NCBI GenBank assembly: GCA_964016885.1
Contig: OZ024743.1
Span: 165,664,001-165,728,000, forward strand
DNA: 64,000 nucleotides
Direction: 5' to 3'
Source of the DNA: Eledone cirrhosa
Lineage: Eukaryota
Below are positions 3,097 to 59,545 of this stretch, one piece after another (position 1 is the first letter of the stretch; each line of letters opens with the position of its first letter). A model generated the notes under the pieces. It had not been told where the DNA came from and made no database searches. It saw only the letters and a list, made by a program, of their open reading frames with translations. A program made the translations under genes and the position numbers.

Positions 3097-3330
3097 AGTA
3101 ATAATAATAAATTTGAAGACTAAAATCCAAAGAGGGCTCGATAAGGATAAATATATATCAAATATATAAGAACCGTAGAGCAAATATTTATTAAAATAAC
3201 AGATTAAAGTTTAAGCAAAGAATCGCTGCTTTCACCCTTAACGGGATCTTCTGAAACTTCAGAAGATCCCGTTAAGGGTGAAAGCAGCGATTCTTTGCTT
3301 AAACTTTAATCTGTTATTTTAATAAATATA
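3097..3330. mobile_element. Putative PLE-terminal-repeat-derived fold-back element (family A) with a perfect hairpin of about 70 bp arms
   Basis: 3184-3255 is the reverse complement of 3258-3329; HHR-like CAGAAGA-uccc...gggu-GAAA; flanked by (TA)n; homologues at about 11850-12032, 45923-46050 and 63300-64000. Confidence 0.7.
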
Positions 3331-3345
3331 TATATATATATATAT

Positions 3346-3627
3346 TGGACTTGTAATCGGTATGTTGTGAGTTCGACCCTCAAACCGAGTGATGCGTTGT
3401 GTCCTTGAGCAATATACGTTATTTCTTGTTCACTCAGCTGTAGAAATGAGTTGTGACGTCACTGGTTGTATCGGTCATTGCGTTTCCCTTGGACAACATC
3501 GGTGGCGTGGAGTATCCATGGGTGAATGCTGGTCTTCCACAGACAACCTTGCCTGGACTTCATCAGAGAGGAATTTTCTGGGCTCAAATCCCATGGTCAT
3601 TTATGACCGAAAGGGGTCTTTACCCTT
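3346..3627 (+). mobile_element. CORE-type SINE (second SINE family)
   Basis: B-box-like GAGTTCGACCC followed by CORE-like GTGTCCTTGAGCAA; tail ...GACCGAAAGGGGTCTTTACCCTT ends in (TA)n. Confidence 0.6.
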
Positions 3628-4133
3628 ATATATATATATATATATATTCAAAGAAGGGCCGCTCAGGACAAAGACAATGGAAAAACAACAGAAAGACGGA
3701 GGGTCGCATTTCCTCAGTCGACCTCTGGAAATCACTACGATTACTATGATGTAAAACTCATTCTTTGACATACTCATTGAATCTTGTTTAACTATTTAAA
3801 ATATATATATAATACATATACATAAATAATATATATATATAATATATACATATATAATATATATATATATTATTTATGTATATATATTATATATATATAT
3901 ATTACACATATATATATATTATATATATATATATATATATATATTACACACATATATATATATCTACCTACCAACGATGCTTCACACCTCGTTACCGACC
4001 TAACCGGTACCCTCACCAACGACGAACTCGAACTTCTGCGCCTCGGACCCAAGTTCATCATTACACAGCGTCTCGATGATAGACTGAAACTCGACATCGA
4101 AACCAACTTCTGTCGGACAGCATATCAACTGAA

Positions 4134-6059
4134 ATGGCTAACCGCCATCCAAAACAACACCGAGATCGATTACAACCCCACAACCCACCCCACACTCCCC
4201 ACGTACCACCTCGACAACCACTCCACCCCCCACCCACCAACCACGATCTTGACACTAAACTACTCAGGTTGAAACATTCTATCTCTAACATCCTTTCCCA
4301 ACACACACACACACACAATAAACGCAACCTCACCAATGCACAATTTAATACTCTCACCAACCTAAGATCCAGGAACCTTGTGTACCTTCCCTCTGACAAG
4401 GGGAAAGAATTCTGTGTCATCTCGAGAGAGACCTACAACAACTTAGCTCTCCAACATCTTAATGACGACAGCCTCTATTCGAAAGTCACAGGGACCTCCT
4501 CGACTCTAATCGAGGAAGGCATTAACACCATATGGACTAACATCTGTGTCCAACGAAAACTGCCAAAGAAGGTAAAAAACAACATAATGACTCGAAACAG
4601 CAAACTACCCACCTTCTACCACCTGGTTAAAACACATAAACAAGGACCCGATTTGAAAATCAGGCCCATTGTTTCTAGCGTGGAGGGCCCACTCTACAAA
4701 ATATCGTGGCTGCTCTCCACACTACTGAAACCCATTCTACACACACTACCAGCCCACGTCTGCAGCTCAAAGGCGGTCTTGGAGCGACTACACCATCTGG
4801 CGCCCAACACCAGAAAGGACAACGGTTATGCCTTCAGTCTTGATGTGGTCGCCCTTTATACCTCCGTACCAGCATCCCCAGCCGTTGACCTGTTGACCGA
4901 ACGAGTCCGAGCATCTAACTTACACTGCTTCGGACTCACACACACGGACATCCACCAACTCCTCTCCTTCGTTGTGGATAATGCACTCTTCAATTTCCTC
5001 GGCCACACGTACAAACAAATCTCTGGGCTACCTATGGGCTCTAGTCTGTCCGGCATACTTGCGATCTCGTACATGGACCACCTGGAACGCAAGGCACTCA
5101 ATACCTGCCAACCCAACGCCGTCGCCTTCTACTCCAGATACGTTGATGACATCCTGATACTTACTTCTTCCCGGGAGATGGCGAATGAAATTCACCAAAT
5201 CTTCAACGATACTGACCATCACGTCGATTTCACCATCGAACACCCAGGAGAAGACGGGTCACTCGCCCTCCTCGACTTCCGTATCAACATCTCGGAAGAA
5301 GGAGACATAAACACCACCTTCTACCGCAAAGCAGCGTGCAAGGACTTATTTGTGCATTACAACTCAGCCCTCCCCAACAACGCTAAGAGAGGCTATGTCC
5401 TAAATGAACTGACACGGATCACTAACAGATGCAGCGACCCGATGGGTGGTCTCACCCATACCACGCAATTCCGTAATCTACTCAAGTCTAATGGATATCC
5501 CAAGCGACTGATTAACGGAATTAGAGACCCCAGACCCAATAGACAGACACCCACTAGAAACTTAAATAAAAGCAGGTGCTTTTTTAAAATCCCCCACCTG
5601 AGTGAATATACCACGAACGCCATCCGCAGGGCCATACGGACGGAGGGACTTGACATACATTTGGCCCACACAGGACCTTCGCTGCGAAGATGCCTCTCCA
5701 ACAAACCCGACGAGTCAGGTGGGACGTGTTCCCTCAGCAACTGCCCGATACGGGGGGCAGATTGCCTACGCACCTATGTCGTATATAAGATTCAATGCGA
5801 TAAATGTAACAAGTTTTACATAGTTAGCACCATCCGACCCCTACATGTTCGTATCAAGGAACATATCAACACCAACGCATCTTCCTTCCGTAAACACATC
5901 CTTAAATGCGGAAACCCACAGGGTAGACCCTTGGTCACAGTCCTAGCGACTGAACGCAGCATCAGATCCTTAAGGATAAAGGAAGCACTTGTTATTAAGA
6001 ACCTCAGACCCCCACTTAACAACCGGGCTGAGAGAAATGAGCTGACATGGCTAACTTAA
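4134..6059 (+). CDS. PLE reverse transcriptase + GIY-YIG endonuclease (641 aa; true N-terminus lies upstream in another frame)
   Basis: PLE motifs SDKG, FYHLVKTHK, RPIVS, SLDVVALYT, QISGLPMGS, RYVDD, LLDFRI, thumb YRK...HYNSA; endonuclease VVYKIQCDKCNKFYIVST..LHVRIKEH and LRIKEALVI...LNNR. Confidence 0.92.
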   Translation: MANRHPKQHRDRLQPHNPPHTPHVPPRQPLHPPPTNHDLDTKLLRLKHSISNILSQHTHTHNKRNLTNAQFNTLTNLRSRNLVYLPSDKGKEFCVISRETYNNLALQHLNDDSLYSKVTGTSSTLIEEGINTIWTNICVQRKLPKKVKNNIMTRNSKLPTFYHLVKTHKQGPDLKIRPIVSSVEGPLYKISWLLSTLLKPILHTLPAHVCSSKAVLERLHHLAPNTRKDNGYAFSLDVVALYTSVPASPAVDLLTERVRASNLHCFGLTHTDIHQLLSFVVDNALFNFLGHTYKQISGLPMGSSLSGILAISYMDHLERKALNTCQPNAVAFYSRYVDDILILTSSREMANEIHQIFNDTDHHVDFTIEHPGEDGSLALLDFRINISEEGDINTTFYRKAACKDLFVHYNSALPNNAKRGYVLNELTRITNRCSDPMGGLTHTTQFRNLLKSNGYPKRLINGIRDPRPNRQTPTRNLNKSRCFFKIPHLSEYTTNAIRRAIRTEGLDIHLAHTGPSLRRCLSNKPDESGGTCSLSNCPIRGADCLRTYVVYKIQCDKCNKFYIVSTIRPLHVRIKEHINTNASSFRKHILKCGNPQGRPLVTVLATERSIRSLRIKEALVIKNLRPPLNNRAERNELTWLT

Positions 6060-6505
6060 CCATAGTGACCATTCACAGCCCTTACGGCCTGCTATTTTCA
6101 CACACGTATATGCTTACCCATACGCACACACACACACATCTATATTTATACACGCACACATGTTTTACAACCTACCACCTTTCACACCCTTTGATTTCCA
6201 GCTTCTACAGCCCACTATCTTTCACACACACACACACTCACACATATACACACTTACACATATACACACACAGTTACACACACATATATATTTACACACA
6301 CATATTTTACGGCTTTCACACGCTAGCGCACCCTCTTGATTTAACCCATTTGGTTAGTAGCTTTTGCCACAGCCTATCACGCGCACGCGCATTCTTTCCC
6401 TCATTTAAATTTAAAAAAAAAATGTTCTCCCCATAACGGCATTCCTGTTTTAACGACATCACAACTTTCTCCGGCTTGGCCTGTTTCCCCCCCTTTTGGA
6501 ACTTT

Positions 6506-58015: not shown

Positions 58016-58483
58016 CACGGAATAAACTACCTTTTTATGATGTCTACCTGTTATTATTCATTCTTTATATACACTCCGGAATACTGAAGGATCAGGAACT
58101 AAGTTTCTTGAACAATTCTTCCATAACTCGTAGAGTAACCTCTTACCGTACGTCAACCATATCCAGTGTAGTAATTAACCATCACTACATCTTGGATAAT
58201 CTTATACCTAATATATATATATATATATATATATATATATATATATATATATATATATATATATAAGGGGTAACAAGTTATCGTTATAGGTAATCCAGTT
58301 ATAGGTTGTGAGTACTCTGCGTCGTGGATAGTTTTAACGTACGGCTTTGTTTAACTCAACAAGATGTTTCCATAGTTAGGCAGCGAGTTCGCGGTAATTC
58401 CTATGTAGGTTATACTTGGAGTAATAATAGTGAAAGAATGAAGAGTAACATGGTTGGCTGTACAACAAGGGGCTTTATTGCAG

Positions 58484-58594
58484 GTATTAACAATTGTTCC
58501 ATTGATCAAGTGTGTCTAGAGGCCGCTAATCGCTGGAAGTTGCGTCACTCGATCTCCATTACATTATTTACCTCTGACCAACTCCTCAGAATAC
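58484..58594 (-). ncRNA. Hammerhead (left arm) with core substitutions GAAA->GGAA and GUC->GUU
   Basis: Diverged twin of 58911-59021. Confidence 0.65.
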
Positions 58595-58910
58595 AAACAA
58601 ATTCACCCAAGGCAAGATATATATAGAGAAATAGCGTATAAAACCCACCAGAGAATCCTTATGCGAACACTTACTCACCACCACCACTATCATATTCTGT
58701 AGTTACATGCTCTCACTTATCCTTATTTCTTTATATTTATCCATTTTCTTACTTTTACTGTATCTTTTCTGTGATCTATTACTTTTTTACTTTTTACATT
58801 TGTAACTTCTCTACCTATTTATCATATATTTTTATTATTGATGTTATTGTTTTGATTATACGCTATTTCTCTATATATCTATATATCTTGCCTTGGGTGA
58901 ATTGTTTTTT

Positions 58911-59021
58911 GTATTCTGAAGAATTGGTCAGAGGTAAATAATGTAATGGAGATCGAGTGACGCAACTTCGAGCAATTAGCGACCTCTAGACTCATCTGAT
59001 CAATGAAACAATTGTCAATAT
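58911..59021 (+). ncRNA. Hammerhead ribozyme with a long stem II
   Basis: guauu CUGAAGA auuggucaga...ucugaucaau GAAA caauu GUC aauau; 10 bp basal stem II and palindromic stem III. Confidence 0.85.
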
Positions 59022-59160
59022 CTGAAGTAAAGCCCCTTGTTGTACAGCCAACCATGTTACTCTTCATTCTTTCACTATATATACATATATATATATATAT
59101 ATATATATATATATATATATATATATATATATTTTTTTTTTTTTTTTTTTTTTTTTTTTT

Positions 59161-59545
59161 AGTATATGTTGGTTGTTTACCGACACCTCAGTGTGCAGAT
59201 TGGAGCACTCGACGAAGTGCGCAGGTTGGTTTGGTTACTCCGGAGTAATGTAAAATAAATTAAAATAAATAAGTCAAATAATTAAAATTTGGCTTCGTTT
59301 ATTACTGCTATATATATTTCGGTGACAGCCACCTTTGGCTGTGACCTCTTCAGGCAGTCCGAATTAGTGTGGTAGAGACGAGTACACATGTTGTTGAGGT
59401 GTTGTCAATACTCTGATATGCATATCAGAGTATTGACAAAGTTAAACACAGAGGTCACAGCCAAAGATGGCTGTCACCGAAATATATATAGCAGTAATAA
59501 ACGAAGCCAAATTTTAAATATTTGACTTATTTATTTTAATTTATT
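59161..59545. mobile_element. Non-coding HHR fold-back element
   Basis: About 59257-59349 is the reverse complement of about 59450-59545; small central hairpin TTGTCAATACTCTGATATGCATATCAGAGTATTGACAA. Confidence 0.8.
59304..59358 (-). ncRNA. Type I hammerhead ribozyme
   Basis: acugc CUGAAGA ggucacagcca aagg uggcugucacc GAAA uauaua UA gcagu. Confidence 0.88.

Follow-up and report, generated by a model that had tools for sequence, protein, structure and literature searches.

The stretch analyzed here (the window) comprises 64,000 nucleotides (nt) of the Eledone cirrhosa genome (GenBank assembly GCA_964016885.1, contig OZ024743.1, positions 165,664,001 to 165,728,000, forward strand). It is AT-rich, with many (TA)n runs and long inverted repeats, and harbors several retrotransposon open reading frames (ORFs). 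Along it lie copies of a short motif, RCUC...GAGYRCU, which an original prediction had placed downstream of hammerhead ribozymes. It is a bulged stem-loop, both conserved and covarying, that belongs to Hydra-clade Penelope-like elements (PLEs). Each copy (hereafter the module) consists of RCUC, a variable upper stem-loop of 4 to ~60 nt, a U-N bulge, GAGY, and mostly RCU. The features of the window are listed in Table 1.

All eight sites of the original prediction were present in the window, at most 1 to 2 nt from their assigned positions; the pairing drawn for the copy at 10595 was out of register, and this module starts at 10588. Module copies at 3006, 13951, 16111, 58073, and 58351 had been overlooked, and that prediction mentioned neither the tandem arrangement with a second module nor the association with insertion ends described below. 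A strict descriptor matched 11 sites in the window versus a mean of 0.51 (maximum, 4) in 100 Markov-resampled windows, which confirmed the enrichment. Three of these 11 sites (18286, 34210, and 29185) are coding sequence of LINEs (long interspersed nuclear elements) and were taken as chance; together with matches at 24850 and 30611, they were dropped because they lie inside LINE ORFs. Genome-wide (3.0 Gb), the strict pattern had 16,792 matches versus 45 for the reversed pattern, a variant with a G-C first pair 1,644 versus 280, and a variant with a UA or UG bulge 41,564 versus 2,150. Patterns with a U-A or C-G first pair were not enriched (566 versus 1,001), nor, overall, were those with a purine-pyrimidine first upper pair (2,136 versus 1,974), the exception being one recurring G-C family in which no hammerhead was seen. 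Coding constraint was rejected as an explanation, since modules lie outside ORFs and their lengths fall in any of the three frames. At the Rfam gathering score the module was unmatched in the window and in eight loci, with sub-threshold microRNA-like matches on repeats only.

The claim of a hammerhead 25 to 75 nt upstream held in part: a strict scan was positive for only 2 of the 8 sites, and a looser scan added the hammerheads at 12922 and 3224. The hammerhead preceding the 10206 copy has a damaged GAAA and an intact inverted mate (8040-8089), and only the 3' half of a hammerhead is present at the 10588 copy. Two copies had been reported without a clear adjacent hammerhead; that at 16863 is truncated at its 5' end, and that at 15676 belongs to a family in which no canonical hammerhead was seen. 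As a separate observation, most observed copies of family K (window 3224-3289 and 63344-63373; L346-L353) have the hammerhead core CAGAAGA in place of CUGANGA, one reading CAGAAGG, and that of the L163/L168 family is CCGAAGA.

Module carriers with a linked ORF are Hydra-clade PLEs. In the available passages of Craig et al. (PMC8557442), this clade is marked by RWK/RWR, DKT, a CxCX5C linker, the absence of CCHH, a hammerhead, and (TA)n targets, and no element beyond the hammerhead is described. The window ORFs at 37860-40030 and 54536-56068 have RWR, DKT, and the CxCX5C linker without CCHH; CxxC and CxH around a conserved E and N were read in both and, by eye, in a metagenome locus (L151). Among 13 aligned N termini, the RWK-type motif was present (R37 and W38 invariant) and GxKF absent, and DKG was replaced by DKT (K119 and T120 invariant, D118 in at least 90%). 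The carriers also have a hammerhead in the pseudo-long terminal repeat (pseudo-LTR) and insert into (TA)n. Judged by these protein motifs, the host elements are assigned to the Hydra clade; no Pfam family matched the Hydra ORFs. Families B, E, G, and J and the copies at 3006 and 58351 had little or no adjacent Hydra ORF in the examined loci, and the leader of family B resembles that of family A. The predicted spread across families thus applies inside the Hydra clade and to ORF-less relatives, but not beyond: a Nematis-like family of the window, so classed by eye from GPKF, DKG, and a short zinc finger linker in the ORF at 4083-6059, had the module in 0 of 30 loci. This young family (window 4083-6690; L305-L334) has two fixed ends 45 nt apart, overlapping the likely ORF start, and a hammerhead-like core reading TTGATGG.

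The module was also found in other animals. A metagenome scan yielded four loci: L151 (36% protein identity) has hammerhead, module 1, module 2, and ATG in order; L152 and L153 have module 1 and an end ~50 nt later, which in L153 falls just before the position of module 2 in L151; and in L154 no module was seen. When six published Hydra consensus sequences from Craig et al. were read by eye, four contained modules: two precede the ATG in sea cucumber Ajap-1, a single one follows the hammerhead in Ajap-2 and in coral Amil-2, and copepod Crog-1 has a single one with a CCC/GGG double change. Against the whole published supplement, the nine-letter 3' halves gave non-Hydra matches only inside apparent coding DNA.

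For covariation, 468 distinct matches from 305 sequences were clustered by their flanks into 197 clusters, 47 with at least two members, and we kept the 25 whose context included an upstream hammerhead, a downstream Hydra ORF, or a fixed (TA)n end. All 150 single-member clusters were excluded, as were 22 of the 47 multicopy clusters, which were mostly chance or antisense by context; four of the latter (13, 14, 15, and 34) are possible modules, either duplicates or unplaced. In the retained clusters the first pair (P1) was A-U in 13, G-C in 11, and G-U in 1, and the first upper pair (U1) was C-G in 11, U-A in 11, and U-G in 3; the upper pairs U2 and U3 were paired in 23 and 21 clusters, respectively. 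Four pairs covary across unrelated families, in line with the compensatory stem change originally pointed out. Pairing is kept, as had been claimed, but what had been read as a freely varying loop comprises an upper stem and, on the 3' side, a 2-nt bulge whose first base is U. Twelve merged lineage groups had 38.8 Watson-Crick pairs versus 20.6 when permuted, values that overstate independence because the clusters share ancestry and patterns forcing P1 or U1 had been used to collect some of them. Sliding the partners reduced pairing from 67 of 75 to 20 to 27 of 75, RNAalifold recovered the same fold unprompted from a 15-sequence alignment, and the covariation score was 0.527 versus 0.240. Over the 25 clusters G·U occurred 12 times and A·C twice, so that wobble pairs favor the sense strand. 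Pairs were exchanged even among close relatives, the first pair being both A-U and G-C in family N and the second upper pair both G-C and A-U in family G. An additional pair below the stem (U·G in the original prediction) was rejected (13 of 25 versus 13.8 expected).

It is hardly credible that the motif merely reflects descent within one recent family, without function. The ORF-linked carriers do all belong to one clade, and the leaders of families A and D are 77% alike over 65 nt. However, proteins of the module families are only 27 to 57% identical, their leaders are unalignable (most leader pairs were unmatched by blastn), and carriers span four phyla. Together with the compensatory changes within families N and G, this largely rules out recent descent, which the original prediction had itself named as an objection.

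Two modules lie between the hammerhead and the ATG in full-length copies. In family A, collected through its protein start (30 loci), 18 of 27 scored ORF starts had two upstream modules, 8 had one, and 1 had none, and loci with fewer than two were mostly cut or interrupted upstream. Family F likewise has two modules, which are followed by the start of the ORF found at 40030 in the window. For four window families (C, D, K, and J) we predicted that a second module would lie immediately behind the usual end. It was found directly behind the long-arm end in families C (84 versus 0), D (52 versus 0), and K (336 versus 0), with the Hydra ATG 16 to 38 nt further on. In a family known only through its ORF start, 2 of 2 copies had both modules, whose 3' triplets differed. 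Module 2 precedes the ATG by 13 to 38 nt in families A, C, D, K, and N and in L151 and by ~60 nt in family F. Between the modules of families A to D we observed an AC-rich hairpin (L098, L221, and L230) whose stem ends in CCAACA in A, B, and C; this hairpin was not found in all families. The proximity of module 2 to the start codon would suit translational operators, at which a bound protein shuts off its own translation and insertion ends are a by-product. We regard this as improbable, since ORF-less tandem families keep the module and since neither the ends 2 to 5 nt before modules nor the pairing of long and short arms (see below) is explained. Translational control could be a second role of the module.

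Insertion ends were mapped from the hammerhead to avoid bias, taking the first 100 of 80,815 matches; the exact end base is blurred by TA microhomology. Fifty-four of these copies ended before module 1 and 35 past it, mostly 50 to 62 nt later; the remainder were 3 past module 1 without a (TA)n end and 8 others. Upon alignment to 35 full leaders, 49 copies ended at most 14 nt 5' of module 1 (42 of these at −2 to −5) and 35 ended near module 2 (31 at −5 to +1, the four at −19 being subfamilies without a close reference). Combined, 84 of 100 copies (49 at module 1 and 35 at module 2) had their end no more than 25 nt 5' of a module, the distance mostly being 2 to 5 nt. The ends sit in a short TA-type stretch, 2 to 8 nt 5' of each module. 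Each leader contains 7 to 16 TAT/ATA clusters, yet nearly all ends fall at two sites, so microhomology alone does not select them. Among head-to-head pairs, 15 of 16 consisted of a long and a short arm, and the 16th, at first misclassified, was also long plus short on alignment, giving one site each (probability of 16 of 16 under independence, 0.48^16, ~8e−6); by eye, the same was true of 8 of 8 inverted pairs in the window. With one end of each type per pair, the "tail" is the interval between modules, ~75 to 150 nt here versus the 30 to 40 bp given for PLEs in the available part of PMC8557442. Within the window, the family K copy at 3133 has an insertion end near 3098, 6 nt before the module 2 position of full-length copies; the 54536 element has a short arm that stops near 53882, ahead of module 1; and the mate arm of the 58351 module (hammerhead 58911-59021) stops 7 nt before the module.

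The original prediction had offered either a second cis-acting RNA element, for reverse transcriptase (RT) recognition or processing, or the core promoter of the terminal repeat. Covariation, sense-strand wobble, and ends just 5' of modules favor the former; a pseudo-LTR core promoter with ATCAGTT as its Initiator is very unlikely. PLE pseudo-LTRs do contain promoters, and in families A and B module 1 is followed by ATCAGTT, but TCAKT occurs within 25 nt in only 7 of 25 clusters, so that most carriers have no Initiator at a fixed distance. Half-site spacing from 4 to ~60 nt, stem covariation with wobble pairs, and the loss of module 1 from half of all insertions also argue against a promoter. 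In Drosophila virilis, moreover, the Penelope start lies upstream of an intron that abuts the hammerhead at its 3' end, and normal initiation does not require the 34-bp repeat.

We consider it likely that the module is an RNA binding site that positions the element's RT to start a few bases upstream. The RT/GIY-YIG protein would bind CUC/GAG and the U-N bulge on the sense RNA, and a nicked (TA)n target would probably pair with U/A-rich bases just 5' of the stem. Copying would then proceed away from the stem, and the bound module would never be copied, which would account for the rarity of module 2 in the genome and for the fact that only module 1 had been seen before. Priming at module 2 would give the long arm, with module 1 and the spacer as the tail, and priming at module 1 the short arm. 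ORF-less families would retain the module for mobilization in trans. The hairpin might instead mark a cut, with the GIY-YIG endonuclease (EN) or a host nuclease trimming an RNA or single-stranded DNA intermediate 5' of each module. The end maps also fit such trimming, Craig et al. attribute the tail to EN-mediated resolution in the available text (PMC8557442), and the D. virilis EN required the tail for recognition, as cited in the accessible part of PMC11167929. We nevertheless think it unlikely: tail ends of the Anolis Poseidon element PAc coincide with in vitro RT start sites (same passages of PMC11167929), the 12:2 ratio of G·U to A·C indicates the sense strand rather than first-strand cDNA, and upper stems that covary would not be required if the site were double-stranded DNA. 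On a bolder reading, two tandem modules may load two RT/endonuclease subunits on one transcript, each nicking one (TA)n strand and priming at its own module, so that one event would give both arms and the length of the tail would be set by how far apart the two sites of protein binding lie. The same logic, with other motifs, might apply in other PLE clades. We put this reading forward tentatively, as somewhat less probable than not.

Several observations count against RT positioning by the module. The Nematis-like family has two ends without a module, and two-site ends are therefore possible without the motif. In family J a second module was not found (10 matches, none a module in the element's own continuation), and its long arms nonetheless end at a fixed place. 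Hydra-1_Obim has no module recognizable by eye, and Hydra-1_Amil is ambiguous. Among the 100 anchored copies, 16 were unassigned (14 could not be usefully aligned to a reference and 2 had ends at other places), and a few copies end 4 to 15 nt after a module. The PAc stem-loop differs in sequence and is primed in its loop (PMC11167929, available part). Single modules fold weakly (−2.5 to −9 kcal/mol), the antisense strand folds equally well or better in 7 of 11 modules, and CUC/GAG, being invariant in the genome set, yields no covariation from its three pairs.

Small stem-loops bound by an RT set the start or stop of copying in hepatitis B virus epsilon, in the 3' stem-loops of LINEs and short interspersed nuclear elements (SINEs), and in the template-boundary element of telomerase. 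Epsilon is protein primed from its bulge, and the stem-loops of LINEs, located at the RNA 3' end, are themselves copied; the module is unrelated to all of these in sequence, internal, doubled, and apparently left uncopied. The closest likeness is to PAc, in which RT has two internal start sites, both downstream of the hammerhead, that delimit the tail, and in which the RNA 3' of these sites is required (PMC11167929, passages available); the Hydra-clade elements share the signal downstream of the hammerhead, the two end sites bounding the tail, the RNA 3' of the starts that would be needed, and AT-rich targets. PAc belongs to another clade, however, and its signal lies inside the ORF, lacks RCUC...GAGY, and is an AC-rich stem-loop primed in the loop, a sequence and a mode of initiation not found here; no conserved or duplicated motif is described in those passages, whereas the module is noncoding, doubled, and covarying, with ends 5' of the stem. 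The tail, or 34-bp repeat, of Penelope and rotifer PLEs is likewise an optional extension on one inverted arm (PMC3846280 and PMC2377424, in the parts available); here, both boundaries carry a copy of the same RNA module, whereas the rotifer paper favored antisense-template self-priming. For non-LTR retrozymes, no cis signal for mobilization is named in the accessible text (PMC7229834; bioRxiv 10.64898/2026.07.22.740005), and the ribozyme core of family G here is noncanonical. The module has no Rfam family, and no description was found in the literature searched, which covered subscription journals, Repbase reports, and theses poorly. It is a real RNA module, apparently undescribed, that would act like known RT-positioning signals but is doubled and clade specific.

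Table 1. Modules, ribozymes, and ORFs of the window, in order of position
Feature	Position	Strand	Remarks
Hammerhead	2865-2892	-	Short arm of 3006 pair
Module 1 variant, 1-nt bulge	3006..3028	+	Long arm of inverted pair; family without linked ORF
Module 1, family K	3133..3181	-	G-C first pair, tail CCU
Hammerhead-like motif, family K	3224..3253	-	Core CAGAAGA
Hammerhead, family A short arm	8040..8089	-	Arm end near 7989, directly before module 1
Decayed C-terminal Hydra-type ORF piece	8627..8842	+	Upstream of family A repeat; tblastn E 3e-8 to 5e-8
Module 1, family A	10207..10228	+	Long arm ends near 10290 at (TA)n
Module 1, family F	10588..10614	+	Predicted as 10595 copy, register corrected
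Type I hammerhead, family D	10908..10973	+	Inverted mate 10753-10818 ends just 5' of module 1
Module 1, family D	11025..11053	+	
Module, family J	12854..12877	-	G-C first pair, UA bulge; second module not found
Hammerhead, family J	12922-12966	-	
Module, G-type family	13951..13979	-	No ORF seen
Module, family E	15676..15704	+	Canonical hammerhead and ORF not seen
Module, family E	16111..16139	-	Inverted twin
Module 1, family B	16863..16886	-	Copy truncated 5'
Decayed module 1, family F	36795..36821	-	Twin at ~42186-42212 (+)
Frameshifted Hydra-clade ORF	37860..40030	-	Start matches ORF start after family F module 2 in L043
Hydra-clade ORF, 5'-truncated	54536..56068	-	Inverted twin 56105-57418
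Module 1, long upper stem	58073..58139	+	Tail AAC; long arm of 54536 element
Module 1, long upper stem	58351..58422	-	Tail UAA
Module 1, family C	59204..59246	-	
Type I hammerhead, family C	59304..59358	-	

Other repeats were observed alongside these features. At 10393-11162 three different Hydra-type insertions are stacked via shared (TA)n runs, and nesting was common in the examined loci. Family G consists of ORF-less, ~600-bp tandem units with up to three module-like hairpins (L036, L049, L058, and L213; window 13951-14100, minus strand); its multistem element, which lacks a canonical CUGANGA but contains GAAA, UC, and a long stem, is possibly a decayed or variant ribozyme and was unmatched in Rfam. 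A repeat family in L249, L273, and L214 (4343, minus strand) has a module-like hairpin with G-C at each of its first two upper pairs, and no hammerhead or (TA)n end was seen in it. Module-like hairpins in repeats of L048, L210, and L214 (3530, minus strand), with no nearby Hydra ORF or (TA)n end, possibly represent another carrier or chance. A SINE-like repeat of ~190 nt occurs at 2540-2730, 7540-7735, 51160-51350, 60003-60355, and 62672-62860, one stretch forming a tandem array that repeats every 159 nt. The interval 17353-35700 contains several LINE-type elements in a decayed state, whose ORFs are RT and AP-endonuclease-like (RVT_1 match at 33723-35207).

How PLEs choose their ends, and why only one inverted arm has a tail, has been open for about two decades. 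Internal initiation had been shown in vitro, with no conserved signal named in the available passages of that study (PMC11167929). The motif described here, 20 to 60 nt long, is conserved across molluscs, echinoderms, cnidarians, and arthropods, and its position predicts both ends within a few bases; as a defined motif, it makes the mechanism of end choice testable by simple mutants. The module is also a marker for tens of thousands of copies in the Eledone cirrhosa genome. Such a cis signal could explain how ORF-less, retrozyme-like repeats move, and it is relevant to how telomerase's closest relatives recognize RNA.

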